Below are positions 6,927 to 47,233 of a stretch of DNA of 64,000 nucleotides, piece after piece. Numbering within the stretch: the first letter of the stretch is position 1; each line of letters opens with the position of its first letter. This DNA comes from Nitrosopumilaceae archaeon (GTDB lineage Archaea; Thermoproteota; Nitrososphaeria; Nitrososphaerales; Nitrosopumilaceae), in NCBI GenBank assembly GCA_965208905.1, contig OZ242365.1, positions 1,088,001-1,152,000 of the forward strand. Direction: 5' to 3'. The notes beneath the pieces were generated by a model. The model was not told where the DNA came from. It saw only the letters and a list, made by a program, of their open reading frames with translations, and searched no databases. A program made the position numbers and the translations under genes.

Positions 6927-7343
6927 CTCTTCTGTTACCAGTATTGTGCCGTTCATCCATGGATGTAATGTACAATGATACAGAAAACTTCCCACATACT
7001 CAAAGGTGTACGTGAATGTCTGATCATACTCCATGTGACCGCTATCAAATAAGTCTGTAGCGTTTCCATATACACCTGATGTCACACTATGAAATGCAGC
7101 GTCCTGATTCTCCCAGGTTATTGTATATCCCAAGGGTATAGATAATACATCTGGAATGTAGCAGGCGTTATCCTCCTCGCATCCGGGTCGTGACGACTTT
7201 GTGGGCATTACAATGTCAGGCTCCTGTATTATATCAGTAACAACTGATGGGGCATCTTCTGTATACAATGTTGATAATAATAGTACAGATACCAGAGATA
7301 TCACTACCAGAGATACTACTACAGACAGGATTACAATCCTCAA
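6921..7343 (-). CDS. membrane-anchored blue copper (plastocyanin/cupredoxin) protein
   Basis: N-terminal TM; W.N.D.AFHSVTSG and YHCTLHPWM type-1 copper ligands. Confidence 0.9.
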   Translation of the reverse strand: MRIVILSVVVSLVVISLVSVLLLSTLYTEDAPSVVTDIIQEPDIVMPTKSSRPGCEEDNACYIPDVLSIPLGYTITWENQDAAFHSVTSGVYGNATDLFDSGHMEYDQTFTYTFEYVGSFLYHCTLHPWMNGTILVTEER

Positions 7344-7957
7344 GTGTGTTCATAGTTGTATAATACGCGCTTTATACATAGGTAGGGGTTTGGGTGGAAA
7401 TTACATACTAAAGTTCATAGAACTACCGGGGGCATTCTACAAGGATAAACCCCCAAATTGTCTAAACATATATCGAAAAATATAAGGATCATCAATTTAG
7501 AATACCAATAATGAATAAATGCGATCAAAAGACATAGGAACAATTCCAACAGTACCGCTTTACGTTCGTCTTGTTTGTTATCGTGCGAATTGCAGGTAAT
7601 CTAAAGGCGCTATACTCGCCCGTAAAGCTGAAATCCAACATCCTATCCAAATCATATGGCAGTCATTCCTGAAGAGTGATGGGGCTATCGTTCATGCAGA
7701 ATAAGGATGAGCTCGACCGGCACTATCAAAGTAGTAGAGTCTATATTTGCTGCCCTGAAGGGGCGGCGGGAAATGGGGAGGTAGCCTTCGTTCCCGTAGG
7801 ACACACATTCAGGACAGGGAGGTGGCCACACAGACCATCGTGTGTAATAGACACACCCCAGGCTGCGTGAACACTTACATCAGATTTTTTAATGAAGATA
7901 TCGGATGGAACATAATGAAAGATGTGTGGCCGCTGTGGCCGTCTGGTGAGCAGTGAC

Positions 7958-9475
7958 ATGGAGCATGCTCCCATAGAGATAGACGAGGAGGTTCTAGAGG
8001 ATCTCAGGACGGCGGTACGCGGGAAGGTGATGGTGCAAGAGTCGACAAGACTGCTGTACTCACTGGACGGAAGTTCATACCAGGTGGTTCCGGACGTGGT
8101 GATTGTCCCAGAGGACGAGGTGGACGTGGTCCGGGCCGTGATAATCGCAGGAGAGGAGGACATCCCGATCACGCCACGCGGATGCGGTACCGGACTAGTG
8201 GGTGGTTCATTGAATGTCGGAATCTGCCTTGACATGAAGAACCTCAACTCCGTCAGTGTGGACGGAGATAGCGCCACCGTAGGGTCTGGTGTAGCTAGAG
8301 GGGCCCTCGACCGGGTGCTGGGCAAGCACGGCAAGATGCTTGGCCCCAACCCATCGGTGGGCGGTTTCTGCTCGATCGGCGGCATGCTAGCACACAACTC
8401 GGGCGGAAGCAGAAGCGTCAAGTATGGCAGTATGGTGGACAATGTGGCAAGGATCACGTTCGTCGACGGAACTGGAAGGATGATCACGCTTCCGGACGAC
8501 GAGGATATAGGGCAGGATGTCATGAGGATTGCCAAGCTTATAGACAGGGACAAGTTCCCAAAGGTGACCAAGAACGCCTCAGGATACAGACTAGACAGTA
8601 TAGGATCCATCGGCGAGACCCACAAGCTGTTGGTTGGCTCTGAGGGGACATTAGGGGTTATTCTCTCGGCTGATCTGAACATCGTCGACGAGCCCAAAAA
8701 CAAGATGCTTTTCGTGCTAGGGTACGACTCATCCTACAGCGCAATGGCTAACTGCCCCAAGGTGGTCGGAACGGGTCCGTCGGCATGCGAGTTTATAGAC
8801 CACCACATTCTCTCCCAGGCGGATCTGGGCCTGGATCCTGGAACAAACTGCATACTACTGGTGGAGTATGACGACGACCTGCAGGAGCGCGCCGCGATGC
8901 TCAGATCGGTCGTTACCGGCACCATAGTCGCCGAGTCTGGCGACCAGAAGGAGATGGACTGGTGGTGGGACCACAGGAACGCTGCGCTTCATCACAGCCT
9001 GGTTGCCGTCGACAAGCACAAGCGGACGCCGCACATGATCGACGACGCGGCCGTGCCGCTGGACCGTATGGTGGAGATGCTTCACATCCTGGACGGCATA
9101 AACGAAAAGTACGGCACAAGCATCATCACGTTCGGGCACGTGGGCAGCGGGAACATTCATGCCCGCTTGGAGATGGATAACACAAAGACCGACACCATAA
9201 GGAAGATCGCGAGTGCGTACTGCAGGGAGATCAACAAGCTTGGAGGTACCATAACCGCCGAGCACGGGGACGGATTCGCGTCCTCGGAGTTTATCGAGAT
9301 GCAGCACGGGAGTCAGAACTACAACGCATTCAAGGCGGCAAAGAGGTATTTTGATCCATACGAGATACTCAACCCGAACAAGAAGATCACCGAGAAGAGC
9401 ACCATTGTAGAGCACCTCTCTGCGGTGCGCACCTTCCACGGAGGCAAGATGGCCCTCTCCGAGGAAGCCTACTGA
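7958..9475 (+). CDS. FAD-binding oxidoreductase, GC-rich paralogue of 19..1353
   Basis: RGCGTGLVGG, GPNPSVG, GSEGTLG, GHVGSGNIH, AEHGDG, FDPYEILNP; ATG at 7958 preferred over 7922. Confidence 0.9.
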   Translation: MEHAPIEIDEEVLEDLRTAVRGKVMVQESTRLLYSLDGSSYQVVPDVVIVPEDEVDVVRAVIIAGEEDIPITPRGCGTGLVGGSLNVGICLDMKNLNSVSVDGDSATVGSGVARGALDRVLGKHGKMLGPNPSVGGFCSIGGMLAHNSGGSRSVKYGSMVDNVARITFVDGTGRMITLPDDEDIGQDVMRIAKLIDRDKFPKVTKNASGYRLDSIGSIGETHKLLVGSEGTLGVILSADLNIVDEPKNKMLFVLGYDSSYSAMANCPKVVGTGPSACEFIDHHILSQADLGLDPGTNCILLVEYDDDLQERAAMLRSVVTGTIVAESGDQKEMDWWWDHRNAALHHSLVAVDKHKRTPHMIDDAAVPLDRMVEMLHILDGINEKYGTSIITFGHVGSGNIHARLEMDNTKTDTIRKIASAYCREINKLGGTITAEHGDGFASSEFIEMQHGSQNYNAFKAAKRYFDPYEILNPNKKITEKSTIVEHLSAVRTFHGGKMALSEEAY

Positions 9476-9576
9476 CTCCGAGGGTCATGGTGCCTGGCAA
9501 CATACGCCACACCCGGATAGCCGGGTGGATGGCCTAGCCTGCGCAGAGCCATCCTGATGCCTTCATGGCACGCATT

Positions 9577-10392
9577 TCAGGGTGCGGGAGATGCTGGGTA
9601 GGATCCGAGCAGTTTAAGAAAGTCGACTTGCTGCTTGATCTCCGAGATCATCTCTTGGACGTTCTCGTCCTGGCCGTGGCCGTCAAAGTCAATGAAAAAG
9701 TCGTACTCCCAAGAGCCAGCCTTTTTGGGGCGCGACACCATCTTGGTTATGTTTATTCTACGGTCCCGAAAGTGTCCAAGCACGTTGTGCAGGGCTCCGG
9801 ACTCGTCCCGGACGGAGACCGTCAACGAGGTCTTGTTACGGCTGACGGGGTCTGCCGCCTCTTTGGACATTATAAAGAACCGAGTGTAGTTCCGCGGACG
9901 GTCCGCTATATTATAGAACATCACCGGGATACCGTACAGCTCGGCCGCCCCCTCGCTGGCTATGCAGACCGTATCTGCCCGGTTCAGGTCTCTTACTATC
10001 TTGACGCTGTCTGCCGTACTGAATGCCACCATCCGCCGCAGACCGTGGCCCTCTATGAACTTCCTGCACTGTTCCAGCGCCTGAGGGTGGGAGTAGACCG
10101 TGCTTGCCTGTCCTATGTCGCCCAAGCCTATCAGGCAGTGTCGGATGGGGTAGTAAATCTCCCCCACTATGACCAGCGAGGTGGAGAGTAACAGGTCGTA
10201 GGTTTGCCCGACGGCGCCCTCCAGCATGTTTTCTATCGGGATTGCCGCATACTCGGACTCTCCGCTCTCCACCATCCCTAGCGCCCCGCCAAAGGTCTCG
10301 GCGGGCATAGTTACGATGGATTTGCCAAAGAACGACTTGGCCGCGCTCTCGCTATAGGCTCCCCGCGCTCCCGGAAATGAGACGCGCGTCAT
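9577..10392 (-). CDS. pheA: prephenate dehydratase
   Basis: GA.SE.AA, PIEN, SHPQAL.QC, NYTRFF, C-terminal ACT domain (GAL..INIT..SRP, LLGSY). Confidence 0.93.
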   Translation of the reverse strand: MTRVSFPGARGAYSESAAKSFFGKSIVTMPAETFGGALGMVESGESEYAAIPIENMLEGAVGQTYDLLLSTSLVIVGEIYYPIRHCLIGLGDIGQASTVYSHPQALEQCRKFIEGHGLRRMVAFSTADSVKIVRDLNRADTVCIASEGAAELYGIPVMFYNIADRPRNYTRFFIMSKEAADPVSRNKTSLTVSVRDESGALHNVLGHFRDRRINITKMVSRPKKAGSWEYDFFIDFDGHGQDENVQEMISEIKQQVDFLKLLGSYPASPAP

Positions 10393-10876
10393 TGCGCCTG
10401 CAGGGCGGCGGTCTTGCCGTCCACAATCTGGGCAGGCGCGATACGTCGCAGTGGCCCGTACGACTCCAAGCCTTGGCGAATCACGGCTTTAGGCATTCGA
10501 TGCCTGTCGTCTGTACCGTGCTGCACGCCGGAGACCATCGGGTCGCCGGCAGGTGCTATAGGGAGCCGAAATCGGAAGATCACTCTTTGTACTGACCAGA
10601 CTGGCAACATCATATGTTGTTTGACTCTCATAGTTTATTATTGTACAGATATGACGGGGTTGCCCAACAAGCGTATTCATGCCGCTTGCGGTCAAATCTG
10701 GGGCGGTCTGGCGCGGGTTTCTGCCCCTCCATAATGCCACATAGTGTGGTATTTTTGCCTCGCAGGAGCCTATTTTGACGGCGCAGTTGTCCGTTTAAGC
10801 AGATCATAAGCCATACATGCCTGTATATGGAGTAGTGATGCCGGTGTTCTGTGTTGTTGTACTTTGGCACAGGGAA

Positions 10877-11447
10877 TTATATACCTGGGTATGCACGCGT
10901 AACATACGCGTACATTCCTAGATGCTTCATGGCGCTTGATGTTTTGGGTCGATTGCACGCTTGATTCTCACGCCGCCGTCTGGCGTCCGGAACTGCACAA
11001 ACAGGTGGCTTCCGGGTCCGGCCCATTTCACGCCTTTCGAGGGCTATTCCTTCCCCCGCGGGAACCTCTCGTCTGGTTCCCCGTTGTATGATGTTTACCG
11101 ACGCATTGCCGTCGGCATTTGCTACATGCCCACATCCCATACACTTGAACATCTCCCCATTTCGGTTCTCCTTGGATATGTAGCCGCATATACTGCACTC
11201 CTGGCTCGTGTGTTTTGGACTTACCTCTACTACATGGATGCCCAGCCGCTCTGCGATAATGCGTATTTTTCGCAGTATTGCATAATGCCGAATAAACCGC
11301 ATACCGCGATTCAGACCTGTCTTGTGCCTGCCACCGCGCCTGCTCATGGCCTCTAAGTTGAGCTGCTCGACATATATTACATCCACGCCCTCGCATATCT
11401 TCTTGGCTAGAAGCCACTCCGCATACTCGCGGTCATTCGCATTACCC
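10877..11447 (-). pseudogene. tnpB: tnpB C-terminal fragment (RuvC-II, zinc ribbon, RuvC-III)
   Basis: VIYVEQL, TSQECSICG...FKCMGCG..NADGNASVNI; cut at the IS3 insertion. Confidence 0.9.
10891..10915 (-). other. subterminal hairpin at tnpB 3' end (candidate omegaRNA stem)
   Basis: Minus strand ATGTACGCGTA-TGT-TACGCGTGCAT, an 11-bp stem with one G-U pair, adjacent to the TIR. Confidence 0.45.
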
Positions 11448-11519
11448 TGGTGGGGACCCCGCTAGAATGAGAACACTCACGTTCATACAGCTTAAAGTCG
11501 TAATGGGAGGGATGATGCC

Positions 11520-11810
11520 ATGGTAAGAACAAAGTTTACTCCAGACCAAAAGATCCAGATCGTTTTGGAATCAATCAAGACCAATATTGGCACGGCCGAG
11601 CTGTGCCGCAAGCACAACGTTCATCCCCAAACGTTTCAAGCCTGGCGGCAAAAGTTCATGGACGCAGGCAAGTCCGGACTGACCCATCACGGAAAGAAGG
11701 ATCCGATAAAGGCCATCAAAAAGGAGAACGGCGACCTAAAGCGAATCATAGGGGATCTGACAATCGCAAACGACGCTTTAAAAAAAACCTTGGAGGCAAG
11801 CAACGATTGA
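11520..11810 (+). CDS. IS3 OrfA (HTH + leucine zipper)
   Basis: KFTPDQKIQIV...ELCRKHNV...W HTH_Tnp_1 pattern. Confidence 0.9.
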   Translation: MVRTKFTPDQKIQIVLESIKTNIGTAELCRKHNVHPQTFQAWRQKFMDAGKSGLTHHGKKDPIKAIKKENGDLKRIIGDLTIANDALKKTLEASND

Positions 11811-12637
11811 ACGCGGTAAAAATCATGCAGGAACAACATTTGAGCCTGCGCAAGTCGCTAGGGTATGCGGGCGTATCCAGGCGCCAATGGTACTACAAAC
11901 CCAAGCCCAGAGACATGGGATTGAATCCGGATATATTGAGCACTGTGCTAGATACGAGCAGAAAGAGGCCCACGTACGGCACACGGCGCATGGCGGCCCA
12001 GATAACGCGCGATACGGGAATTGTGGTGAACCGCAAGCAGATACAGCGGATATATCGCAAAATGGGCTACATCCAGCCACAAAATACCAAAAACGACATC
12101 ATTCGAGCGGGTCAAAAGCTCTTCAAACCCAAAGCCCCACACCAGTTGTGGGAGACGGACATCACATACATCTGGTGCGGTATAGACGGCTGGTGCTACT
12201 GCTTCAACGTAATTGACTGCTTTACGCGCAAGTGGATCGCCTACGCGTTTGATGTCAATGCCACACGAGACATTGCAATCACCTCAATCACCAACGCGGT
12301 TGCCGCAGAGAAACCTGACTGCTCACAATTACGATTGCGTACGGACAACGGCAACCAGTATACGAGCCGCGACTTTAGACATGCGGTTCAGGCCCTTGGC
12401 ATCGGCAAACATGAATTCATCTACAAGAATACGCCGGAGCAGAACGGACATGTCGAATCATTTCACAAGACGCTGAAAAAGGAATACATCTGGCCGCACG
12501 AGTTTGCGAACTATCAGGAGGCAGAGACGATCATTGCAAAGGCCTTTGTAGATTACAACACCGAGAGGATTCATTCCTCTATCGGATACATGACACCAGT
12601 AGAATTTGCCGAACAGTTGGAGATGACAAATAAATGA
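11780..12637 (+). CDS. IS3 OrfB DDE integrase, joined to OrfA by a -1 frameshift
   Basis: WETDITY, RTDNG.QY, NGHVESF..LK.E; slippery TTTAAAAAAAAC at 11777-11788. Confidence 0.9.
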   Translation, partial: KKNLGGKQRLNAVKIMQEQHLSLRKSLGYAGVSRRQWYYKPKPRDMGLNPDILSTVLDTSRKRPTYGTRRMAAQITRDTGIVVNRKQIQRIYRKMGYIQPQNTKNDIIRAGQKLFKPKAPHQLWETDITYIWCGIDGWCYCFNVIDCFTRKWIAYAFDVNATRDIAITSITNAVAAEKPDCSQLRLRTDNGNQYTSRDFRHAVQALGIGKHEFIYKNTPEQNGHVESFHKTLKKEYIWPHEFANYQEAETIIAKAFVDYNTERIHSSIGYMTPVEFAEQLEMTNK

Positions 12638-12694
12638 TGGAAGATGTATGTAAAATCATGCCGAAAACAGTAACATTCTATGGGGTCCACTCCA

Positions 12695-12769
12695 ACCCCG
12701 GTTGTACTTTTCTCGTTTATGTTTAATTTTACGTGTTGAGTTTGAGTGTTTGTTGTGGTGCGATATGGT
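12695..12769 (-). pseudogene. tnpB: tnpB middle fragment
   Basis: Encodes TISHHNKHSNSTRKIKHKREKYNRG, in frame with both other fragments once the TSDs are collapsed. Confidence 0.85.
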
Positions 12770-12942
12770 GGGACTGGGAAGAAATGCTGACCTAGGGAAA
12801 GTGCTGACCCGAAGTGGGAAGAAATGCTGACCTGACCTATATTTCCACTCCGACCCCAATTTCCACTCCGCTAATTTGACCAATGTTTCCACTCCAGACA
12901 TGAACTACCCTAATGTTGAATAAAAGATGAAAAATATACTAC

Positions 12943-14328
12943 TTATTTTTGCTTGGCCTTGGCAGCAGCCTGTATGAGAGTCATCCACTTGTTATCACCC
13001 TGTACAATTATACCGGCGGCCTCTGCCGGAGTCTGGTTATCTGATAATCCAAGGTGTGAACGCACAAAGTTATGATATAACTTCAAACCTGTTATGATAC
13101 CCGAATCCTCGCGCTTTAGACCGCGCGTTACCTTCTCACGGTGACGTAACGTGTTCCCATTGAACGACTCCATCTGGTTGTTGTGATGTATGCCATCAAA
13201 CGCGACATCGTTTACATGTTGGGTTTCTTTGTGCAGAAAGTTCTTGGCTTTGTATTGTCTCTTCCATGCATTGTGGAAGTTTGTAGCACCGTCTGATATC
13301 AGGGTATCCGGAACCTTGCCTGCTATACATTTGGCCTGCTTGAACATTGGAGCCACATCATCATTGCCCTTATGTTCAGCCACCATCTTTGAAATCCAGT
13401 ATCTTGTATCTGAATCCAACATGGCAAACAAGTATCGCTTGTTGCCCTTAATTTTCAAGTGCAGCTCATCCGTTCTCCATTCCTCTCCGACCTGTAGTTG
13501 TATTGTATCAACATAGGACTCCATTAGTTTGGCGTAGGTAGCGGCCCAATTCTGTATGGTTCTGTAGGTTATCTTGGGGCCGTTCTGCCCCAACTGTCTT
13601 GCCACCTTCCTGGATGACAATCCACTAAAGTACATTCCTACTGCCGTACAGATGTCATCCGGCGTGGTATGCTTCATCTCAAAGCCAAGGTTCTGAATGA
13701 ATCGTCTCCCACATGTTTTGCAGCCGTACTGCTGTTTCTTGCGACACTTGCCCTTCTTGATGATATTAGTAGAGTCACAGAACTTGCATCTGGTGTGATC
13801 ATGCGGCTGTATTATACGCCGTTCACCATTATGCCACTGGACTGCTTGAATGTGTTTGCATGTACTCCCTGTATGTATGTGGTCCGGGCATGAACACATC
13901 CACCCGCTACCGAAATTACGCACCTCGTATGATTCATCAGTACTCTGTGATTTGACTAGATAGTGGTCGTGCGATATACGTTCTACCTGATTATTGGCCT
14001 GATGTATCATCATGCCGCGGTCAGCACGCGCCTTTGCGCCAAGATGCTCTTCTAATGCATATGCATGCTTGCAATATATCGCATCATCAGGACATGTACA
14101 GTTCCAGCTTCGGGCTGTCCGTGTCAACGTATACTTGACGCATGGTTCAGTCTGTGAACACACCTCGTATGTAGAATCATCTACTTGACGAATCTGATTC
14201 TTTTGTTTTGTTATCAATATGCCTCGTTGTTTTCTGTAATTCATTTGCATGGTAGCGTATCGGCACCATTTAAGGCGGTAAAAGTCAATCTTGAGGTATA
14301 GGAGTACTCCTGTGAACGCTGTGGGCAT
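12943..14328 (-). CDS. IS6-like DDE transposase with two N-terminal SWIM zinc fingers and a C4 zinc ribbon
   Basis: CTCPD..YCKH and CSCPD..TCKH (SWIM); CKFC..CKTC; HTH; WRTDE, LISDG, NNQMESF triad; true start probably 14250 or 14244. Confidence 0.88.
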   Translation of the reverse strand: MPTAFTGVLLYLKIDFYRLKWCRYATMQMNYRKQRGILITKQKNQIRQVDDSTYEVCSQTEPCVKYTLTRTARSWNCTCPDDAIYCKHAYALEEHLGAKARADRGMMIHQANNQVERISHDHYLVKSQSTDESYEVRNFGSGWMCSCPDHIHTGSTCKHIQAVQWHNGERRIIQPHDHTRCKFCDSTNIIKKGKCRKKQQYGCKTCGRRFIQNLGFEMKHTTPDDICTAVGMYFSGLSSRKVARQLGQNGPKITYRTIQNWAATYAKLMESYVDTIQLQVGEEWRTDELHLKIKGNKRYLFAMLDSDTRYWISKMVAEHKGNDDVAPMFKQAKCIAGKVPDTLISDGATNFHNAWKRQYKAKNFLHKETQHVNDVAFDGIHHNNQMESFNGNTLRHREKVTRGLKREDSGIITGLKLYHNFVRSHLGLSDNQTPAEAAGIIVQGDNKWMTLIQAAAKAKQK

Positions 14329-14777
14329 ACATAAAATGGACTATCTGGCAACTCCACGGGTTGTAAGGGACTGGGAAGAAACGCTGACCCAGAGTCGAAA
14401 TGGAGGTCTTGTACGATTAGGAGTGCGGAGTGGAAATTGTACGTCTGGGGCGGAAACATAGGTCAAATCACTACGCGCTATTTTGGGGCACACGCTATAT
14501 TTGGGACAGTTCAAAGAGTGGTCCACTCAACATCCCGTGAAAACCGAGCTATGACTATCATCTTTGAGGAGTGCTTGAGTCCAGAGATAACATGACAGTA
14601 GTGTGTGTACTGGCCGGAGGGAGGCTGTAAAAACCAGTCCTATAAAGGGGCCTAGACTAGAAATGGCATAAGGTGTGTGGTAGGTGCATGAGGTCAGTTT
14701 TAGTGAACTGAGTATAAGGCTATGTACCATCATTTTCTGTCTTAAACATTGAAATTAACGATAAACGTTCGTGACAT

Positions 14778-15255
14778 ATGCGAGGCTATTATGCGATACA
14801 GGTTTGTATGAATGGGCATGTTATCACTGATCGGCATAGGTGGGACGACGTCGAATATTGTACAGAATGTGGGGAGAAGACAATAATCAAATGTCAAAAT
14901 CAAAGCTGTGGTGAGGAGATACGTGGTGAGTCAACTACCCCCTCCAATTTCCCGCTCGCTGTAGGTTGGCCCAGCACCAAATAACTGTCATAAATGTGGA
15001 GAACCATACCCTTGGACACGGGATAAGATCGAAGCACTTCAGAAGTTGATAGAGTTGTCATCTCTGGACAAGGAACACAAAAAATACGTGTTGGATGAGG
15101 TTGTACACATCATAAGTGAAACACCAAAGACCAAAATCATTTGTGATGTATTTAAGAAAATCATTCCTGAAGATGAATCATCGATTTGGTCTGTACTCAT
15201 AGAGGTGGCTACACAGAAGGCAAAGGACATTCTAACCGGCGTGTCACCGACATAG
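14778..15255 (+). pseudogene. DUF2321-like Zn-ribbon protein, one frameshift
   Basis: QVCMNGHVIT..YCTECG..C..CG.EIRG in one frame continues as CHKCGEPYPWT in the next; removing 1 nt near 14940-14975 gives about 158 aa. Confidence 0.7.
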
Positions 15256-15322
15256 ATGGCAATTTACATGAAACCATCCAGATTTCCACAATGGGAGCCA
15301 AGAAAAGAGTAGCCTTTGTTAA

Positions 15323-18274
15323 TCATCCTTCCAAATCTTTCCGACCCAAATGCTTCTCATGTACCAACCAATCGTATATCTGTTCTAAGTTGTCCACACT
15401 CAATCCCAATATATCCGAAACACGCCTGTCAATCTCTTGTCGCACCTTATCACTATCCACCATATTGATGGGCTTCATCTCCTTTTTACAAAGGTCATCG
15501 AAAACCCCATCCAACTGTGTGATGATGTGTTCGTCCATGCTAGCAAAATCCGGCACAGGCATTTGTCTGCATGACGTTAGTGTCATCAAGCCACGTTCAG
15601 TTTGCTGTGAGTTGGATACGAACCAATATGTGAGTATTCCAAAGATTGAGTTAAACCATACCATAAACGCTTTTTCATGATTACTATCATTCAGTCTGAC
15701 GTTGGGCCATGCACTACCACCAACTGTCTCCATCTCCGTATATGCGGCAATCAATCGTTGGGAGGTATACCGAACATACAGGTTGATGTGTGTATGTGTT
15801 CTTGTATCCCAAACATTGTTTACCTGTTCCTTTGTTGCATCTTGTTTTTTCTCTAATGAATAATCCGGAGGCACAACCATAATTCGTTGTGTTTTAGCAT
15901 CATTTCCCCACAAACACTGGTATCTTTGTCTGCGCCCGTATCTGATTTTTATAAAAGGACCCTGCGGAGTACCATCATGTTTGGTTCCAATTATGTCAAG
16001 GTGATGTTTCCCCATGTACGATATTTCTCCAATAGTAGTCATTTCAATACCCAACCCACCATTTATCAGACTGTATGCAGTCTGTAAGAGAAATATGTTT
16101 GATGTTCTGGTCAACATCCATCGTCCATCTTCCACAGTACAGTCTAACATATCGCCAACATGTGTGTCTCCTAAAACAAGTGACGTTCCACCCATGCAAT
16201 GCTCAATTCTATTGGCCGGTGTTTTTCGTATGATTTTTGCAACCTCCAACCCTCCAAGACGTGACGTAGGTAGTTTATTGAGCAATACAAATTTAATTCT
16301 GGGAAATTGCCCTTCTGGCCACTTGGTTGTTCTTTTACGGGCTATCAATACCACCTCCTCCATTCCTGTACCGGCAGAGAAGGTCAACTCATCAGTTCCT
16401 GCTGAACGACGCAGTCTGACTACTGTTATGTCATCGTACCATTGGTTCAATACTTCACGTATGTCTGACCATGCCGAACCAGAAGTCATGGTAGCTGGCA
16501 GTATGAAGCCCATCACACCACCTGGTTTTAGTTTCCGATGGGTGATTGCAATAAAGTATGATGCCAGACCGGCATGTCCATGAGATCCGGTTTCGCAGAA
16601 GAGGTTAGCGTTGGTTTTTCCCATATCACTCTGTATATCCGGCGGTATACCAAATACAGCAAAAGGAGGAACCGGGTCGGTTCGTCCACTGCCGTGGTTT
16701 GTAGCCTTTACGAATGGTGGATTCATGAGTACAAAATCAAACGATTCAGAACGAAGCCTCACACTCGTAAGATTCTGTCCGCCTTGTCCACCATGTCTTT
16801 TACCAACATCTCCAGATAGTGCCTCTATCTCAAGGCTTATGGAGTCTTCACTAATTTCTGAATCTACATCTCTAATAAGATCCAACGAGCCCAATGAACG
16901 AACAGGTTTACGAGGCCGTGTCTTTACCGGCATCGGTGTCCCTATTGGCATCTGGTATATTCTGGCTTCTTTGAATATGTTCGCGGGATATAACACAGCC
17001 AAGTTGGAAACTGTCAAATGTGTTGCGGTCGGCATTATATCAAAACCCCACAATACATCAGCCATTACTGTGGGGTGCATCTTTGCAATATTCTCGTCAT
17101 TGGCATGACAATGTATTATGTGGTTATATGCGGCGGTCAGCAACATGCCGGTGCCACACGCAAAGTCAGCTATGCGGAGTTTCTCTATGCGAGATTTATC
17201 ATTCCAAATTTTATCACTTATCGGGGGCAATACAAGTTCGGCTAAAAGTGTAGCAGCTTCAGGTCTAGTATAGAATGAGGCCGATTTTTTTCGTTCAATT
17301 AGGTCATTCTGATATAATGCACCATATACATCGCCAGAATTCTGCATGCCGAGACTCATTACAACTGAGACTGTTTGAATTATCACATCTATAATGACAG
17401 ATGCAGATCGTTCCGGTATCACATTAAACAGGTCGCGTGTAATCTCAAAGACTGGACCATAATTGATGTCCAATACAGATTCCATACCATTCATGATGTC
17501 ATATTTGGTGGGCTTGTTTGTCAGAGAACCAATGGATGTAAGTGTCTTTATTTCGTCTAGATGTGAAGATAGTTCTTCATAAAAGATACTTCCATTGAGT
17601 AGCATCAACGCGGCCATAGACATAGCTTGTCTGTCACTCATACCATACAGGGTGTCAGTACTCTTGTTATAGCCCAACAAACTGATTATCTCTGACTTGA
17701 CACCGTTGTCAGCATCAACCAATGTATTGGCTATACTGTTTATCTGCTTCTGAATAATTTCTGTATACTCATCTTCAACATTGCGTGATACTATGGAAAG
17801 GCGTGTCGCCGTTATAACATCGGTTATGTTCCCCCTTAGGTATCCGTTGGTGGGAAATCTGTTGGTGCGGTCATGTACAAAATATTCCAGCTCGGAACTA
17901 CCAAACTTTGTTCGAAAGTCATCCGCGTCATCTGCATGCGCAAGCTCGTCGGGGAACAGCACCCCGACTATGGCTGACGGTGTGATGTTACCTTCCTCCA
18001 ACGTTACTTCTAAACGGTCGCCGACCTCCCGCTCCAGATTGCTCCTGTCTGTCTCCAACTCAATAATTACGGCTTGGTTTACGCTTCCTGTCCCCTTTGG
18101 TCGCACTATGATGTCAGGTCGCTTGCCGTGTTTACCAGAGACGGTCCGTGTCCTCTCGGCCTTTGCAGTACACCAGCCACTGTCATTTATGACCTCTGCT
18201 ACCCAGGGGTTGATTGCAGACTCTACGGCCCGGCCACCACGACGCGTTATGGGAAGCAACCTCCGTCCGGCCAC
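15323..18274 (-). CDS. Type IIG-like fused restriction endonuclease/amino-methyltransferase
   Basis: N-terminal RPDII..IIELE nuclease motif; FYTRPE, IADFACGTG (motif I), MNPPF (motif IV); C-terminal TRD-like region. Confidence 0.85.
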   Translation of the reverse strand: MAGRRLLPITRRGGRAVESAINPWVAEVINDSGWCTAKAERTRTVSGKHGKRPDIIVRPKGTGSVNQAVIIELETDRSNLEREVGDRLEVTLEEGNITPSAIVGVLFPDELAHADDADDFRTKFGSSELEYFVHDRTNRFPTNGYLRGNITDVITATRLSIVSRNVEDEYTEIIQKQINSIANTLVDADNGVKSEIISLLGYNKSTDTLYGMSDRQAMSMAALMLLNGSIFYEELSSHLDEIKTLTSIGSLTNKPTKYDIMNGMESVLDINYGPVFEITRDLFNVIPERSASVIIDVIIQTVSVVMSLGMQNSGDVYGALYQNDLIERKKSASFYTRPEAATLLAELVLPPISDKIWNDKSRIEKLRIADFACGTGMLLTAAYNHIIHCHANDENIAKMHPTVMADVLWGFDIMPTATHLTVSNLAVLYPANIFKEARIYQMPIGTPMPVKTRPRKPVRSLGSLDLIRDVDSEISEDSISLEIEALSGDVGKRHGGQGGQNLTSVRLRSESFDFVLMNPPFVKATNHGSGRTDPVPPFAVFGIPPDIQSDMGKTNANLFCETGSHGHAGLASYFIAITHRKLKPGGVMGFILPATMTSGSAWSDIREVLNQWYDDITVVRLRRSAGTDELTFSAGTGMEEVVLIARKRTTKWPEGQFPRIKFVLLNKLPTSRLGGLEVAKIIRKTPANRIEHCMGGTSLVLGDTHVGDMLDCTVEDGRWMLTRTSNIFLLQTAYSLINGGLGIEMTTIGEISYMGKHHLDIIGTKHDGTPQGPFIKIRYGRRQRYQCLWGNDAKTQRIMVVPPDYSLEKKQDATKEQVNNVWDTRTHTHINLYVRYTSQRLIAAYTEMETVGGSAWPNVRLNDSNHEKAFMVWFNSIFGILTYWFVSNSQQTERGLMTLTSCRQMPVPDFASMDEHIITQLDGVFDDLCKKEMKPINMVDSDKVRQEIDRRVSDILGLSVDNLEQIYDWLVHEKHLGRKDLEG

Positions 18275-18623
18275 CTCTTTGCAGTATTAAATCTACCAAA
18301 TGTTTTGTAGCTTGCTTTATAGTGCCAATAGACGCACCACAACCGTGATGATTGCCCACCGCTAGTTGTTCGTGCCGCCAAGCACTGTTCGTGCCGCCAA
18401 GCACTGTTCGTGCCGCCAAGCACTGTTCAGCTTCCAAGGTCTGCGAGCACCCTCTCTGCATTAAGAGAATGTCTATCCTTGACTGCGTCTCCCCAATTTC
18501 CAACACCGTCGCCTTTCTCTTGGATTCAATCTTTGATGCCAGCCCACAGTAGATAGCCCGATGCTGGCCTTGTTTATGCCGGATAATGTTGCCCTTGATG
18601 GTCTTGAAGTTGATGGAACTCAT
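18183..18623 (-). CDS. hypothetical protein containing a 19-bp tandem repeat
   Basis: ATG-started ORF upstream of and co-directional with the RM gene; its C-terminus depends on repeat number. Confidence 0.4.
   Translation of the reverse strand: MSSINFKTIKGNIIRHKQGQHRAIYCGLASKIESKRKATVLEIGETQSRIDILLMQRGCSQTLEAEQCLAARTVLGGTNSAWRHEQLAVGNHHGCGASIGTIKQATKHLVDLILQRGGRTEVASHNASWWPGRRVCNQPLGSRGHK
18367..18428. repeat. 19-bp tandem repeat x3.3
   Basis: (TGTTCGTGCCGCCAAGCAC)x3 + TGTTC, perfect copies. Confidence 0.95.
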
Positions 18624-18935
18624 ATAGAAAATATAGACGATCTGTTAATAAGGTTATACGAACAGCCGCCTCCAAACTCAGTGTTGTAAGAACTTTTAAC
18701 CTAACTGAACTATTAAAATTATGATCTGGAATTGTCCTGACCTATGTTTCCGCCTCAGACCAACATTTCCACTCCGCTAAAACATACCTCGTTTCCACTC
18801 CGCACGCCTGATGTATAACTAATGTACTCCAACTACTATTTCCAGTCTAGGCACCACTTTGGGACAGGCGCCATTAATGGGACAGTCCACACAATCAATC
18901 CCCTTTTAATATAATGTCGTTTTGATAACCACATT

Positions 18936-19454
18936 GTGGACTGGTACGCGGAGATTTTACCATCAATTATGTCAGCATCGATAGCGATTGCCATAATAAC
19001 TACACTTGTGCTAGCAAGGAAGGACAAGAAACGCGAGTGCCGCGAGAGGCAAGCTACGGAGGTAAAGATGCTGCTTGATGCACACATGAACTTATGGAGT
19101 GGCCTGCGGCAGATGGAGGCGCATGCTGCTGGTATACCTGATAGGAATAAGCAGTCGGGTAGTCACGCCCTGTTGGTAGACGACTTCAAGTGGCTTCGCG
19201 ACGTATTACGCAACGAGTCGCTCATGTTGGCGCCCGAGATACATGATGAATACGTCAAGTTTCTCAAAGAACCCCTGAAGCAGGCAATGTTTGGCCTCGG
19301 CAGCTATATCCCCGCTAGCTCTCACATATATGGTGCGTCAGATACACCGTACTTGGCTAACCTCTCCAAAATGCAGCAAATAGCCGAGAAGCAGTGGAAG
19401 AAGTATGAGTCCGAATACCGCATGCTTGGTGGAAAGTATCCGCACGCCAGATGA
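18936..19454 (+). CDS. hypothetical protein with N-terminal TM helix
   Basis: 172-aa ORF with hydrophobic segment SIMSASIAIAIITTLVLA followed by basic residues. Confidence 0.65.
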   Translation: MDWYAEILPSIMSASIAIAIITTLVLARKDKKRECRERQATEVKMLLDAHMNLWSGLRQMEAHAAGIPDRNKQSGSHALLVDDFKWLRDVLRNESLMLAPEIHDEYVKFLKEPLKQAMFGLGSYIPASSHIYGASDTPYLANLSKMQQIAEKQWKKYESEYRMLGGKYPHAR

Positions 19455-19476
19455 TCTTCCAATACCTCAACCCACA

Positions 19477-20430
19477 TTACGCCTCAACAGTAGGATAGTC
19501 AACATACTCGAACTTCAGCGACTCTATCATGGCCTTGGCCTCCTCAACACATTCAAACTTGGGCGAACACACCAGATAACCTATACCGCGCCTCTCCTCC
19601 GTAAACCCGCCTTGGCCGACCCGAAGGGCTATGACACACCGGTTCTCCGGCAGATGAAGTCCCCACTCTTTTGGTATGAATATACTCCACGGCTGCTGCC
19701 AGTGTTCCATGTATGCAACAACCACTCCCGGGCGGTACCTGCGCATCTGCCCCATCTTGCGCGTCAGGGTGTGGAAGTTGGCATCGGCATCGTCTCCCCT
19801 ACCTCCGTATTTTGTGACGTACTTCATTTTGGGGCGGTACTTGCCCGGATCAATGCAGAACTCGCCCCCCACATACACACCGCGCTTCATGGTACATGCC
19901 TCTTCGTATGCAAGCGGACCAGTGCCGTACCAAACCTCTACGTCCCACCTGTTGTTGTTCATGTCTTCAATGTCAATGTCAAATGTATGTTTGTTGTCAC
20001 AGTCCATATGTTCCACCTCGATGTCCACTATTCGGAATCCTGCCTCGTAGAACCACTTGGTGACGCGCGCCTGAACTGCAATCCCGCCCCCATCACTGCC
20101 TGTCTGCAAGCGATCCAACTCCCTGTCGACATCGCCCCGCAACTCGTAGATGTTTTGGGCCGTCTCAAATTTCCGCATCAGGTTGGGGTGTAGCCGGCGC
20201 AATTCGTCAATGTCGGGTGCATCCTGCCGCTCCAATATGTGTCGCAGGGTTCGTGTTCGACACAACTGTCCACGGTAGTCCGTGATCTGTTTTGTGATGG
20301 AATCGTACTTCTTGGCTTGGCCCTCCCGGCAAATATTGGACTGGTTTGTCTTCCACCACTCCAGCAACTCGTCCAACGTTTTGAGGCCCGCGCATGGGTC
20401 AAATTTTGCCATGCTCTGTTCCCGATGCAC
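19477..20430 (-). CDS. hypothetical protein, possible PD-(D/E)XK-fold nuclease
   Basis: 317-aa ORF; GFRIVDIE..FDIDIED..WDVEVW pattern resembles a restriction-endonuclease core. Confidence 0.55.
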   Translation of the reverse strand: MHREQSMAKFDPCAGLKTLDELLEWWKTNQSNICREGQAKKYDSITKQITDYRGQLCRTRTLRHILERQDAPDIDELRRLHPNLMRKFETAQNIYELRGDVDRELDRLQTGSDGGGIAVQARVTKWFYEAGFRIVDIEVEHMDCDNKHTFDIDIEDMNNNRWDVEVWYGTGPLAYEEACTMKRGVYVGGEFCIDPGKYRPKMKYVTKYGGRGDDADANFHTLTRKMGQMRRYRPGVVVAYMEHWQQPWSIFIPKEWGLHLPENRCVIALRVGQGGFTEERRGIGYLVCSPKFECVEEAKAMIESLKFEYVDYPTVEA

Positions 20431-20652
20431 ATCTTCTATTAAGGTTTAGCTTTGACCTGAACTGTCCCAAAGTGGTGCCTAGACTAGATATAGGGCCATG
20501 TTTAGTGGAGGGGAGATTATACGTCTAAGGTGGAAACGTAGGTCACCAACTTTCCAATTCTGGGTCAGTGTTTCTTACCAGTCCAGATTATGATGTGTAG
20601 TGTTTGTCCAAATAACACCCGGAATTCAGAAAAACCACGTCACCCGCAGATA

Positions 20653-21555
20653 TTAGGTTCGGCGCTTCCCAGTCTTACATTGTTTAAGTTTCAGCAGCAG
20701 TCTTTTAATATCCTTCTCATCTCTTACAGGCGCATAGTAGTTGCCCGTACCGTGGTGGCCAGGATCGGATACATCCTTTACAAATTCATCTTCCGTAAAA
20801 TCACCCTTCCGACCAAAATAGACTTTGATCTTACTACGCTGAACTATCGCGGTGCATAGTAGATACTCACCATCACGCCCAAATCCGACATAGTATTTCG
20901 TTGGCAATTCCTTTACTCCTGAGAATGTAGAGAGCATCCTATCACGAAGTGTCTTGTATAGTGGGTTTTTGGATTCATGTGGATTGGTGTTCGAAGTTCG
21001 TTCTTGCTCTGTGTTGGTTTCAAGTATTTTAGGTGTAGTCTTTACGGCCGTATCTATTGGACCGCGTTTACCAGCTATATACCTCAGTGTCACAATCCCA
21101 TTTTCAAACTTCCTTAACTCATACAGGCATTCATTATCTTTTTTACCCGCAGCGTATATCTGATCCTTGTTAAACTCTGGTGCGACGATTATTGCATAGA
21201 TGTTATTCCACTTGAATGAATTCGGATCCTCATGGGCGTTATACGATTTATTGTATGCCAGAGTCAGTGTAGCGCGATTATCATCCATCTTATTGAGATA
21301 GTTTTCGGCCTGCTGGCGAACCGTATCAGAACGCCTGTTCTTGTACTCGATTGCTACAAAAGTATGGGCTTGGGGGTCATATACAACCGTATCTGGAATT
21401 TTGTCTGATATTTGCATCTTACTTTTGACCAACTTTAGATTTGGAAATAGTATGTGTAGATTATCTTCGAACCACTTGTGTTGTTTACTCTCGTCGGGAA
21501 AGTTAACATCGTCCAACTCACAACATCCTTTGGTGGATGTGTAGAATGTACGCAT
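20653..21555 (-). CDS. NucS-like PD-(D/E)XK nuclease fused to DUF5655-like domain
   Basis: E...W.E.NL..LF, PDTV..FVAIEYK..QA..Y, IIVAPEF; C-terminal TKYYVGF..DVS..GH.GTG. Confidence 0.72.
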   Translation of the reverse strand: MRTFYTSTKGCCELDDVNFPDESKQHKWFEDNLHILFPNLKLVKSKMQISDKIPDTVVYDPQAHTFVAIEYKNRRSDTVRQQAENYLNKMDDNRATLTLAYNKSYNAHEDPNSFKWNNIYAIIVAPEFNKDQIYAAGKKDNECLYELRKFENGIVTLRYIAGKRGPIDTAVKTTPKILETNTEQERTSNTNPHESKNPLYKTLRDRMLSTFSGVKELPTKYYVGFGRDGEYLLCTAIVQRSKIKVYFGRKGDFTEDEFVKDVSDPGHHGTGNYYAPVRDEKDIKRLLLKLKQCKTGKRRT

Positions 21556-21752
21556 ACGTTTTTGGTATAATGGCGATATTTAATATTGTTGTAAATGTGA
21601 AGTCATGCCTGGACTAGTAATGTAGGTATGCAACCACCATTTCTACTCCGCTAAAACAGATCTCATTTCCAGTCCGGACGCCTGATGTATAAAGACCTGC
21701 GTTTCCAGTCCGGGTCAGTACTTTCCCTAGGTCAGCATTTCTTCCCAGTTCC

Positions 21753-22456
21753 GATATGGTACGGCGCGTCTCATCATTCCATGTACGGTTCGTGCGGAAT
21801 GCGGTTGCTGTATCGTATGATGTGATATTTGAGGTGTTATGGTCTGTCTTGCACACGACGGTCGGATTTGTTATCCCCCTGTCTATGCCGGCAACAACCC
21901 CGGTCTTGGCGCACCGTTCGGGTGCCGGTACGTCATATGTTATGTGTAGCCGGTAGATATGGTCACACGACTTGACATGCACCCACGACTTTGGTGTAAC
22001 CTGCACCAAACGGAAAGACCTGGCGCCATACAGCCAGTTGTGTGGAAATTGATATGACTGCTCCTCGCACAACTCAACAACACCAAGGCCCGGCAATGAC
22101 GCGTGCCTGTTGTCCACATATACAGGCTGCACATCACATGATACTGCCTTTGTATTATCGCGCTTTCTGGAGCGGAAACTTAGTTTGCCGTTGCCGTATT
22201 TGTTCGAGACATCCGCAGCAGTGCGGGCTTGGTGTATGGCAGTATTTTGGTATATACGCTCTACTGTTTGCAGCCACTGCACGGAACGCCTCATCTTGGT
22301 GAACTCCCTGGAGAGATCATATGTAGTGAGTGTGGGGTTAGTAAGCAGCCGCTCCACGGCCCAGTTGTACACGAACCGCTGTGAGTCCCGTATTTTAGAT
22401 ATGTGACGCGCCTGAGAGCGTGTCAGGTCTATGCGGAAACCATAAGACCGATACAT
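21753..22456 (-). pseudogene. tnpB: tnpB N-terminal fragment (HTH, RuvC-I)
   Basis: MYRSYGFRI..RFVYNW, FRSRK, LPGLG, AGIDRG; reads into the 9-kb transposon TIR after RRTIS. Confidence 0.88.
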
Positions 22457-22581
22457 GTAGTTTTATACACTATAATACTTTATAAATATGTATCCTACAG
22501 GACTTGCCTTGCCTGCCCAGGCATATAATTCCCTTGGCACATGTAGATGGATTTAATATTCATAATACAACAAGAGCATCA

Positions 22582-23145
22582 ATGATACATACCAAGTGGT
22601 CAGATGACTTTATGGGGATAGCGTATAGATACTTTGATCTGCGCATGAATATTGTTCCCTTACTGCCCCATAGAAAGAAGGCATTAAAGATGTGGCAGGA
22701 TGTAATACATTGGTGGTATGATGCATCCATTCGTGTCAGGTTTATAGAGTATCCAGACCAGTACAGGTTTGTCATAGGTGCCGAGTCGCGAAGACCCGAC
22801 TCGAATGTGTCATTTTACAAAATACTACACAAATCGCCACACTATGAGCGATTCAAGACAGGGTATGGTGATGCAGCATATCTGCGTCTGGGAGAGTACT
22901 CAACAAAGAGACTACAGGATGTAAAGGATTCAGATGTATGCAACTGTGGTCATCCGGCAGGAGACCATGCAGATGATGAGAGTACAGAGTGTCTGGAGGA
23001 CGGGTGTGATTGTAATGAGTTTGTTCAGACGCAGGTGTACATGTTGCGGCGTAAAAAGACCATAACAGACATTGTATTCTTGGATTATACGGATATAGAA
23101 AAAGATCCATTATCTTGGAACTGTATAAACTCCAATCCTAGTTGA
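22582..23145 (+). CDS. conserved hypothetical protein with Cys/His cluster
   Basis: CNCGH...H...C..C.C motif; the track start (22504) lies inside the mobile element, so ATG at 22582 is preferred. Confidence 0.75.
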   Translation: MIHTKWSDDFMGIAYRYFDLRMNIVPLLPHRKKALKMWQDVIHWWYDASIRVRFIEYPDQYRFVIGAESRRPDSNVSFYKILHKSPHYERFKTGYGDAAYLRLGEYSTKRLQDVKDSDVCNCGHPAGDHADDESTECLEDGCDCNEFVQTQVYMLRRKKTITDIVFLDYTDIEKDPLSWNCINSNPS

Positions 23146-28810: not shown

Positions 28811-29039
28811 TGTGTTGTTGTATAGTGTTAAATACGTCATTAAACCGTACTATATGATGGCGCTTGTCAAAATGGGCTGGTAACTTATCCGCGCTTGAAA
28901 AGCCCATGTTAGAATTACAATATTCTCCAAAAAAGCCGTGATTTTTACATTTCAAGTCCGCACCACCCACCAACAACCACAATGCGCAAATACGGAATCT
29001 TGGAACAACCTTAAAACGTACCTCGGGAAAAACAATACC

Positions 29040-37000: not shown

Positions 37001-37154
37001 CCCGAACTACAAACTACACGTGCACGTAATTGATGGTGATACACATTATACAACCATCTTAGACGATCCATCTAAACTGATTACAAAGAAAAATACTACA
37101 CATGATGCTCCGATTTCTGAACTTAACCGTCTTGGTGAGGTGTATGAATACTAA
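34071..37154 (+). CDS. SNF2-family helicase with C-terminal DUF3883 (NOV-C) nuclease
   Basis: PHQ, LLADEPGAGKT, DEAH, LTATPH, EG.N.Q, EQRMGRLHRYGQ; GYDI.S..R.IEVKAR..LTPNE. Confidence 0.92.
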   Translation: MKYGDLKPDMLIDGPYWDRPVTLEQFESAGQHTKLTIRRYNGTTSTIRVKLEDIDIHHTQYGTPWRTRAAVDMLRHKHAKGGGADMGGMDPLPHQIQSIRRITSQYDNIRFLLADEPGAGKTAVASSIIREMKLQGRADRTLIVTPAHLKYQWRAELKRFTGLKGYIVEGGSIDQSNPWPTDEHDILITSIDYARGEKNLQVLARMEFDLVVVDEAHHMNSSGKNVSKRYRVGEALSNISKHMLFLTATPHRGKPENFQRLLKLLNPELFPDGLSSEEVAVRKGPMFLRHLKTEMTDMDGRPIFPKRSVRSLKYEMSIPESDMYKMVSNYVRKQHQRLVEQDERQLAPFLILLIQKRMASSTYALQKTLERRRDKLKDYLERDIFPRPNLEYEEVDDEYDEDDPEHERRDDELSGISASRTPEELKVEIAELDSLVEAADQAASTKPDRKLEKLLDIVKSLGDGKLLVFSEYMDTIQYLEKHIGERVCRIDGKMKQQQRDAAVQEFRDTYRIMLATDAAREGMNMQFCNTMVNYDLPWSPIVLEQRMGRLHRYGQEKDVTIHNMIADNTIEGDVLERLDAKIKEIEKQYEAVDVIGTILSEVNIKDIMVESITGRVSDGVSKRMRYVGEKMRREQEMLERTPVDLEAALRAKGEIAAKHVDGKHLVYMMQNIFSGLGGSVKSTNTKTTIQVPSELRSGPFRRKRESFDIPVQEALSRGTKLYKHIESWVMDNCRADLQGGSVFAGNYEGHIVFHITKLKDSSGKTAEVLVQAHRVGADGVVQSVHPDILSELDDMGGDPGARPEVGSATDRAFEDAQARSRQLNEEAREYWRHRSETMNIGGGLESLRMELGDLMPGTPEWKAIDEKIKNLESWEGNMQRSASTDKLHVEEPVLVGWVRVVRRKDTQDTEIRGMNRSMEIERKEGFIPEDVSNKRGLGYDILSKHPDGRERHIEVKARCSFTPVQLTPNEENARLKDPNYKLHVHVIDGDTHYTTILDDPSKLITKKNTTHDAPISELNRLGEVYEY

Positions 37155-47210: not shown

Positions 47211-47233
47211 GGTCAGCATAACTTCCCAGTTCC
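47211..47233. repeat. orphan copy of the 9-kb transposon right end
   Basis: GGTCAGCATAACTTCCCAGTTCC vs GGTCAGCATTTCTTCCCAGTTCC (21730-21752), 21/23. Confidence 0.75.

Follow-up and report, generated by a model that had tools for sequence, protein, structure and literature searches.

Transposons that carry a tnpB gene are the closest described relatives of the locus treated here. The IS200/IS605 elements have neither terminal inverted repeats (TIRs) nor target site duplications (TSDs), and inverted ends together with target duplications run contrary to the definition of both IS200/IS605 and IS607, according to the parts of two sources that deal with these elements (PMC13565253, PMC3119063). 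TnpBs associated with DDE transposases are known as well: the passages on them in Altae-Tran et al. 2023 (PMC10691335) describe transposons with inverted ends and a DDE transposase and also solo tnpB copies with near-identical ends, and the DDE family named there together with TnpB is IS630. The corresponding section of a 2026 review names ISL2, IS630 and IS1031 with TnpB and calls the association rare and unexplained (PMC13565253). In this study, we analyzed a tnpB gene that is split into three pieces by two inserted transposons, and the mobile element to which this gene belongs. It lies in a 64,000-bp stretch of archaeal DNA (the window), which is C1:1088001-1152000 of the single 2,214,775-bp contig of genome G000.

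With a probability of about 0.8, we explain the locus as a tnpB element with IS1595-type ends that was recently split by an IS3-family and an IS6-like insertion through neutral nesting. All plain coordinates are window positions. For comparison, the genomes G001, G002, G005, G006, G007, G008 and G009 of the same genus were used. Family 1 is the tnpB family of the window copy, and its loci in other genomes (L126-L155) come from G001, G002, G006, G007 and G009, while family 2 is a sister tnpB family with the ends GGGAATTATATACAAAAGTA. Repeats of G000 were recorded genome-wide with a cut-off of at least 85% identity and at least 300 bp; they amount to 258,481 bp, or 11.7% of the genome, in 188 intervals, 75 of which are at least 98% identical.

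The split tnpB gene and its two inserts

The initial annotation had claimed that three separate pieces add up to an intact 445-aa open reading frame (ORF), and this holds. On the minus strand, 22456-21753 (704 nt), 12761-12695 (67 nt) and 11443-10877 (567 nt) join to 1338 nt, which translate to 445 aa followed by a single terminal stop, with the junctions reading ..RRTIS/HHNK.. and ..KYNRG/NANDREY.. as reported. By translation, piece A (21753..22456, minus strand) comprises codons 1-234 and 2 further nt and encodes the HTH/WED-REC part as well as RuvC-I (GIDRG). The second TSD copy of the larger insert (21753-21760) coincides with the first 8 nt of this piece on the plus strand. Piece B (12695..12761, minus strand) consists of the 67 nt between the two insertions, is in frame and matches the paralogs (..HHNKHSNSTRKIKHKREKYNRG..). 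Piece C forms, together with the right end of the element, the segment 10872..11443 (minus strand), and its translation covers codons 258-445 with the stop at 10877-10879. It contains RuvC-II (VEQL), the zinc finger, RuvC-III (NADGNA) and the putative omega-RNA scaffold region.

Seven further family-1 members were found in G000, six of them open (three of 445 aa, three of 442 aa) and one broken by stops. As the initial annotation had proposed, the inserts were excised and the product was compared with TnpB models and homologues. The joined product aligns over its full length, colinearly and with zero gaps to the six intact paralogs, and both junction regions match paralog sequence. In Pfam searches, piece A gave HTH_OrfB_IS605 (3.1e-7) and the start (first half) of OrfB_IS605, and piece C gave Cas12f1-like_TNB at 3e-18, so that the domains stand in the expected order. 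The closest intact paralog, which is 93-94% identical, has all three domains (HTH_OrfB_IS605, OrfB_IS605 and TNB), and an intact paralog passes the NCBIfam model guided_TnpB NF040570 with 126.2 bits (cutoff 100 bits); the window pieces, each being a fragment, reach 36.9 and 79.4 bits on their own. The RuvC acidic residues mentioned in the initial annotation were also recovered. The joined product has the motifs GIDRG, VEQL and NADGNA and a C4 zinc finger, the motifs being identical to those of the closest paralog. In an alignment of a paralog to the Cas12f chain 7l48_A, GIDRG falls on D326 and NADGNA on D510, and the glutamate of VEQL lies at most two residues from E422, the HMMER register being ambiguous at that point. 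These results confirm that the three pieces are one split gene, the predicted product of which is a TnpB-family RNA-guided RuvC nuclease.

The smaller insert is an IS3-family insertion sequence (IS) of 1247 bp at 11448..12694 (plus strand) with the ends TGGTGGGGAC...GTCCACTCCA, flanked by the 4-bp duplication ACCC at 11444..11447 and 12695-12698. Its orfA (11520-11810, plus strand) matches HTH_Tnp_1, and orfB, which overlaps orfA in a second frame and runs to 12637 on the same strand, matches rve, rve_3 and HTH_21 (all Pfam). The overlapping orfA/orfB frames, the TGGTGG..CTCCA ends and the 4-bp TSD identify the IS3 family. The element has 13 genomic copies and, compared to the window copy, seven of the other 12 are 100% identical, three 99.92% and two 99.76%. 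Matching 4-bp flanks are kept in 5 of the 13 copies. The eight copies without matching flanks have half-sites that pair between copies (1083323/2187163, 1727491/2098869 and 1526238/1788650/1326780 on C1), and these swapped half-sites indicate that IS-mediated rearrangements (inversions or exchanges) occurred.

The larger insert is a transposon of 8983 bp at 12770..21752 (minus strand), with the perfect 8-bp TSD GATATGGT at 12762..12769 and 21753-21760. Its 51-nt inverted ends (12770-12820 and 21702-21752) are 90% complementary and are accompanied by repeated subterminal motifs. A 9-bp TSD was considered and rejected, since the ninth base is the last base of the right inverted repeat and 8 bp is the more economical assignment. 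The gene at 12943..14328 (minus strand) encodes an IS6-like transposase of 461 aa, in which two SWIM zinc fingers and a Zn ribbon are combined with a DDE_Tnp_IS240 core. Pfam scores are 1.1e-11 and 45.5 bits for DDE_Tnp_IS240 (cutoff 27) and 1.4e-7 for SWIM, and the NCBIfam model transpos_IS6 gives 85.7 bits, which is under its cutoff of 125; database relatives are labelled IS1/IS6 or DDE-type transposase (thaumarchaeal and Cenarchaeum records). The whole unit is single-copy in G000, its sole full-length blastn match being itself; its transposase family has 13 copies (tblastn), and the terminal 23-mer family of IS6-like elements occurs 46 times with at most 5 mismatches. Two unrelated transposons, one of the IS3 family and one IS6-like, each with a perfect TSD, thus sit in one gene 67 nt apart, in agreement with the initial annotation, and this anatomy is directly observed together with its TSDs and copy numbers.

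Both insertions look recent, which had likewise been claimed before. The IS3 copy has seven identical copies elsewhere, none of the three TSDs contains a mismatch, neither a stop nor a frameshift is present in the split gene, and the private substitutions of the window copy (17 synonymous versus 8 non-synonymous) still carry a signature of constraint. Sister strains and reads had been suggested as sources of alleles with no or one insertion. Two relatives are free of the complex, and an intermediate allele was not found among the genomes and contigs compared. In G005, the nearest relative with flanks 94-98% identical, the whole complex is absent at the orthologous site, and about 210 bp around the target are also missing, so that there is no exact empty site. 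G008 lacks window positions 7250-22544 altogether and has about 147 bp in their place. The 9-kb transposon and its cargo are absent from both genomes, the best match being one of 92% in G008 to 21231-21675 and the others being relatives of the transposase or ends with lower identity. Contigs from four runs (X6-X9, from one sample and probably the source of the assembly) showed no joint that skips an insert and no indels, although contigs cannot show rare alleles. A loose contig end at 11446 was considered as an empty allele; it continues as uninterrupted tnpB, but its sequence differs, and it was read as a paralog. At about 20 bp from the window insertion site, G005 carries a different 1.7-kb element (L069:155-1879), which encodes a TnpB-like protein of 531 aa that includes a TNB domain. 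The intergenic target region seems to be permissive for such elements.

Ends, mobilization and constraint of the tnpB element

The initial annotation had overlooked that the inverted ends and 8-bp TSDs of the tnpB element are of the IS1595 type, and that the element thus lacks the organization of a classical IS200/IS605 element. Its left end (22457..22533, minus strand) consists of 77 nt of leader sequence with the inverted terminal repeat GGGAATTATATGCCTGGG at its end. Outside of it lies the left-hand TSD copy, in tnpB orientation, at 22534..22541, and the same 8-mer, reading TTGGCACA on the plus strand, forms the right-hand copy at 10864..10871. Without both inserts, the element is as long as two intact copies (1420 bp) and has TIRs of 20 nt starting with GGGAATTATATAC. 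Alignment of the eight family-1 copies of G000 with their flanks gave sharp borders. The right border is ...ATAATTCCC (TAATTCCC), 5 bp past the stop codon, in all eight copies, and the left border is GGGAATTATATACCTGGG in four and GGGACTTATCCC in four. Flanking 8-bp direct repeats are present in all eight copies (six perfect, one 7/8, one 6/8). Membership of the element in IS200/IS605 was considered and is ruled out by the TIRs and TSDs of all eight family copies.

A genome-wide scan of G000 with the terminal 12-mer and 8-bp flanks, allowing at most one TSD mismatch, gave 26 TIR pairs. Seventeen enclose tnpB only and belong to several tnpB families, four pairs are without either gene (short or with other cargo), and the other five correspond to four elements with an IS1595 transposase, as one long pair overlaps another. 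In addition to the 17 tnpB-only pairs, G000 has four tnpB-only elements with a variant left end. This transposase has 320 aa and matches DDE_Tnp_IS1595 at 1e-40 and NCBIfam transpos_IS1595 with 173 bits (cutoff 75). Also, two larger IS1595 elements of G000 carry an N6/N4 methylase-HNH gene. The first 10-13 terminal nt are identical between the tnpB element and the four transposase elements, and the window element encodes tnpB alone, with no IS1595 transposase of its own. We take the ends of ISNwi1-type IS1595 elements to be ggnnatTAT with 8-bp duplications, and GGGAATTAT presumably matches the end consensus of the ISNwi1 group as kept in ISfinder.

In the five other genomes with family-1 loci, 23 of 30 loci have TIRs and an 8-bp TSD (18 perfect, five with one mismatch). 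Two of the remaining seven are located at contig ends, and another one is L129. There, a 2562-bp element in G001 (L129:1478-4039, corresponding to C9:21605-24166) that has GGGAATTAT... inverted ends and is flanked by a perfect 8-bp TSD encodes a 320-aa IS1595-family transposase (DDE_Tnp_IS1595 1e-35) followed by a full-length TnpB, which is 57% identical to, and colinear with, the window family. This element, in which IS1595 transposase and tnpB are directly observed side by side in a sister genome, looks like the autonomous form, and the window element is best viewed as a derivative, devoid of transposase, of an IS1595-family transposon with tnpB as passenger. The shared ends and the 8-bp TSDs suggest that the tnpB element is most likely mobilized in trans by a DDE transposase of the IS1595 elements and not by an IS200/IS605 TnpA. 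The loci L071 and L072 from a contig scan were not counted as additional evidence, because their TIRs and TSDs equal those of L127 and L145 of G007 and they are probably the same elements.

Pairwise ratios of non-synonymous to synonymous substitution rates (dN/dS) among the family-1 copies are 0.15-0.28, which indicates that the tnpB family is under purifying selection. Conservation among these copies is 97-99% over the last ~160 nt of the element, compared to 71-96% elsewhere, and the RNA fold of this conserved 3′ stretch has a z-score of -2.43 against shuffles. An omega-RNA is likely to be encoded at this end of the element, its function being deduced from position and conservation. The only Rfam matches in the window were four tRNAs, all outside the tnpB region.

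For family 2, a base beside the target duplication may be relevant to nuclease function. Elements were oriented by tnpB, and position -9 denotes the base directly 5′ of the left 8-bp TSD copy. This base is G (consensus ATNG) in all 14 family-2 elements of G000 that are bounded by TIRs and TSDs, for example C1:33496-34967 and C1:456071-457536, and in the strict left-end set of this genome the consensus positions are A in 9/10, T in 8/10, N, and G in 10/10. The same G was found in two of three family-2 elements of G008 (L077, L079) and in five of six elements of G006 (L098, L103, L107, L114, L117), where TnpB is only 56% identical. On the right side of family-2 elements, there was no complementary C signal (3/17). 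A symmetric target preference of a DDE transposase would not give such a one-sided signal, and the G occupies the site at which a target-adjacent motif (TAM) would have to be located for a guide read from the right-end flank (TSD and adjoining flank) to recognize the unoccupied site. Tentatively, and with the odds somewhat against it, TnpB/omega-RNA modules might have been captured by cut-and-paste transposons of the IS1595 family and might still serve as homing or retention devices in this genus. RNA-guided nucleases would then shape where DDE transposons persist. Family 1 showed no TAM-like base at position -9 (A in five, T in two and C in one of eight copies in G000; G in 9/23 in the other genomes). 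At position -13, which is 5 nt before the TSD, 15 of 23 elements among the loci L126-L155 have a C. In a metagenome scan for the family-2 TnpB, a single distant and uninformative locus of 24% identity was obtained.

Two insertions in one gene

The count of interrupted tnpB copies suggested by the initial annotation was performed for all loci of G000 with a TNB domain. There are 52 of these, of which 43 keep frames of at least 395 aa. Nine are shorter. Besides the window copy, these are a locus interrupted by a 1.1-kb IS (present in about 12 copies), a locus cut short next to an IS6-like transposase gene, three loci disrupted by a stop or a frameshift, a single 3′ fragment and the two members of an inverted duplicate pair. 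Nesting was also seen for the IS3 element, one further copy of which lies inside a 4-copy repeat and another abuts a tnpB element. Based on the repeat census, uniform random insertion would lead to about 0.2 doubly hit 1.4-kb elements, and purging of insertions in essential genes raises this expectation several-fold. In a genome with 11.7% repeats, a mobile element is a safe landing place, so that such insertions are not purged. Since a second hit would not inactivate the gene any further, and since the paralogs remain intact and under constraint, neutral nesting is favored over selection, and the two insertions are best read in this way. The initial annotation had left the choice between selected disruption of an active nuclease and a gene acting as an insertion sink. 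The sink, in its neutral form, is the better reading, and nothing supports selection against the nuclease, given the long frames at 43 of 52 loci, the low dN/dS, the repeat content and the nesting elsewhere.

Under neutral nesting, a 1420-bp non-autonomous tnpB-only transposon with 20-nt TIRs, inserting with an 8-bp target duplication, would have landed between a putative prephenate-dehydratase gene and a conserved ORF. An IS3-family element would then have inserted at codon 257, and the 8983-bp IS6-like transposon at codon 235, 67 nt upstream of the IS3 site, although the order of these events is one that we infer. The 9-kb transposon with its methyltransferase gene and candidate defense gene probably moved as one unit.

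Could the inactivation itself have been selected, for instance because the nuclease was harmful through a guide matching a genomic site, so that cells with a disrupted copy outgrew the rest? Such a process would explain why two independent insertions lie 67 nt apart and both fall between RuvC-I and RuvC-II, in a gene that until recently had been under purifying selection. However, one insertion already destroys the gene and a second gains nothing under this model, the 43 loci with long open frames include six close paralogs, the family dN/dS is low, and nesting is seen elsewhere and expected from the repeat content, which makes selection quite improbable. A preference of one or both invading elements for some sequence or structural feature of the DNA midway in tnpB, which would turn the gene from a passive sink into an active target, is unlikely too. 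In two tnpB families, three IS insertions are located within codons 202-257, and some small mobile repeats of Haloquadratum regularly target other mobile elements according to the pertinent part of PMC3119063. Against this stand the IS3 copies, only 2 of 13 of which lie within other repeats with one more abutting a tnpB element, their TSDs TGAC, CGGT, ACAT, ACCC and TGGA, which share no common motif, the unrelated TSDs GATATGGT and GTCCGTTG of the IS6-like family, and the six close paralogs, which have nearly the same local sequence and were not hit. That the nesting is not real and repeats were mis-joined in the assembly is hardly conceivable. The region is full of multi-copy repeats and the run contigs are fragmented at repeat borders, but each of the three nested elements has perfect, element-specific TSDs, excision restores the exact 1420-bp element and the open frame, and one contig in each of the four runs spans the border 21752/21753 by 33 nt without a mismatch.

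Several points weigh against our explanation or parts of it. Two hits 67 nt apart in a 1420-bp element are mildly unlikely (about 9% by position), and another interrupted tnpB was also hit mid-gene, at codon 202/203 of 450; this spacing and the mid-gene position of the three insertions leave room for a local target preference. No allele with zero or one insertion turned up in the genomes and contigs mentioned above, and event order and recency are read from sequence identity alone. The case for the proposed mobilization in trans by IS1595 transposase is limited to 10-13 terminal bases in common and to the length of the TSD, and G009, with 12 family-1 tnpB matches, gave only a partial, stop-containing match to the IS1595 transposase with the one query used, as did G002 with the same query. 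For the omega-RNA, the z-score of the fold is only modest, and no Rfam omega-RNA family matched in an E-value search of 10500-23000 or in a search of the whole window at gathering thresholds. The inner 6.2-kb segment of the larger insert, which is described below, is without a clean TSD, and a nested element is one reading of it among others. Nevertheless, we regard the split gene as routine transposon-in-transposon nesting, with no evidence of host selection against TnpB.

Cargo, neighboring genes and comparison with known systems

The initial annotation had also missed that the 9-kb insert is internally composite and carries cargo. A second pair of family end motifs (14367, plus strand, and 20585, minus strand) delimits an inner segment of 6219 bp (14367..20585) with most of the cargo. 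Its arms (14368-14418 and 20534-20584) are 75% complementary, its flanks GGTTGTAA and GATTATGA agree at 5/8 positions, and further end-like repeats are present inside the 9-kb unit. The segment is probably a nested non-autonomous relative. Given a perfect outer and a degraded inner TSD, we infer that this relative nested first and that the composite then moved into tnpB as a unit. The cargo includes an N6 DNA methyltransferase-like gene (15323..18274, minus strand, 983 aa) with Pfam matches to Eco57I (9.6e-7) and N6_Mtase and weak PADLOC matches to type I/II/IIG methyltransferases and mad2. Upstream of it, at 18367-18428, a 19-bp unit is repeated three times in exact tandem (seen as the overlapping 24-nt repeat TGTTCGTGCCGCCAAGCACTGTTC). 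A candidate defense gene (20653..21555, minus strand, 300 aa) matches PADLOC PDC-S18 at 7e-46 over its full length and Pfam DUF5655 with 21.4 bits, under the cutoff of 24. This DUF5655 gene was considered as part of the core IS and rejected, because it is absent beside every other transposase copy. Two ORFs at 14778-14984 and 15046-15255 correspond to the N- and C-terminal parts of DUF2321 and probably represent a single cargo gene interrupted by a frameshift or by a stop, and two more ORFs have no family match.

A related IS6-like element of 3602 bp is present in two identical copies (C1:1337692-1341293 and 1851328-1854929) with TIRs of about 50 nt, an 8-bp TSD and extra ORFs, and carrying cargo is therefore usual in this family in G000. 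The left flank of one copy equals the right flank of the other (GTCCGTTG), and this exchange of flanks indicates recombination between the copies. A lone end motif of the IS6-like family, GGAACTGGGAAGTTATGCTGACC, is located at 47211-47233 in minus orientation.

Next to the tnpB element, the region ~7900-10870 forms a block with a G+C content of 56-57% against a background of 41-47%, which is also present in G005. It contains a 517-aa ORF at 7922-9475 (plus strand) and an ORF that was read by eye as a putative prephenate dehydratase gene. At 28938-37154, three genes encode a DUF499 protein, a DUF1156/N6-methyltransferase and a SNF2/ResIII helicase with a NOV_C domain. This cluster is defense-like in appearance and has a second genomic copy of at least 85% identity.

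Compared with described systems, insert 1 is alike to the IS3 family in its two overlapping ORFs, TG...CA-type ends and 4-bp TSD, and nothing notable differs. Insert 2 shares the DDE_Tnp_IS240 core, ends starting with GG and an 8-bp TSD with the archaeal IS6-like elements, which have been argued to be a separate group, and like these it has TIRs longer than those of bacterial IS6/IS26, as far as the sections of Harmer & Hall 2019 on archaeal elements go (PMC6807381). It differs from the elements described there in its size of 8983 bp versus under 1 kb (about 0.7-0.9 kb for IS6/IS26) and in its cargo genes (PMC6807381). Further differences are the two N-terminal SWIM fingers, the 51-nt TIRs with subterminal motifs and the score under the NCBIfam IS6 cutoff. 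The 9-kb insert suggests that archaeal IS6-like elements can move defense-type cargo.

The TnpB of the split gene belongs to the same protein family as that of IS200/IS605 and IS1341-type solo tnpB elements (HTH_OrfB_IS605, OrfB_IS605, TNB zinc finger, D-E-D). Like the IS1341-type elements, the window element has a gene reaching to within 5 bp of the right end and a strongly conserved 3′ end, which would be in line with an omega-RNA; unlike IS200/IS605, it has 20-nt TIRs and 8-bp TSDs. In the DDE-associated TnpB branches, the 3′ end of tnpB is near the transposon end, as in the window element, according to the passages describing them (PMC10691335). Here, in contrast to those branches, the partner is an IS1595-family transposase, the host genus is Nitrosopumilaceae-like and archaeal, and most copies are without transposase. 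The term IS1595 does not occur in the main text of that paper, the supplementary tables of which may list it (PMC10691335), and no report of tnpB in IS1595 elements was found in the literature searched. DDE-associated TnpB as such is thus already known, and TnpB in IS1595-type elements appears to be new. The tnpB-only population with IS1595-type ends, the sister element with both genes and the one-sided TAM-like base together offer a natural system for the role of the nuclease in DDE transposons. With IS1595 elements that carry passenger genes, the elements described here share the 8-bp TSD, ends beginning with GGGAATTAT and the presence of passengers. They differ from these in the passenger itself, which is tnpB and is the sole gene in 17 TIR-bounded elements of G000.

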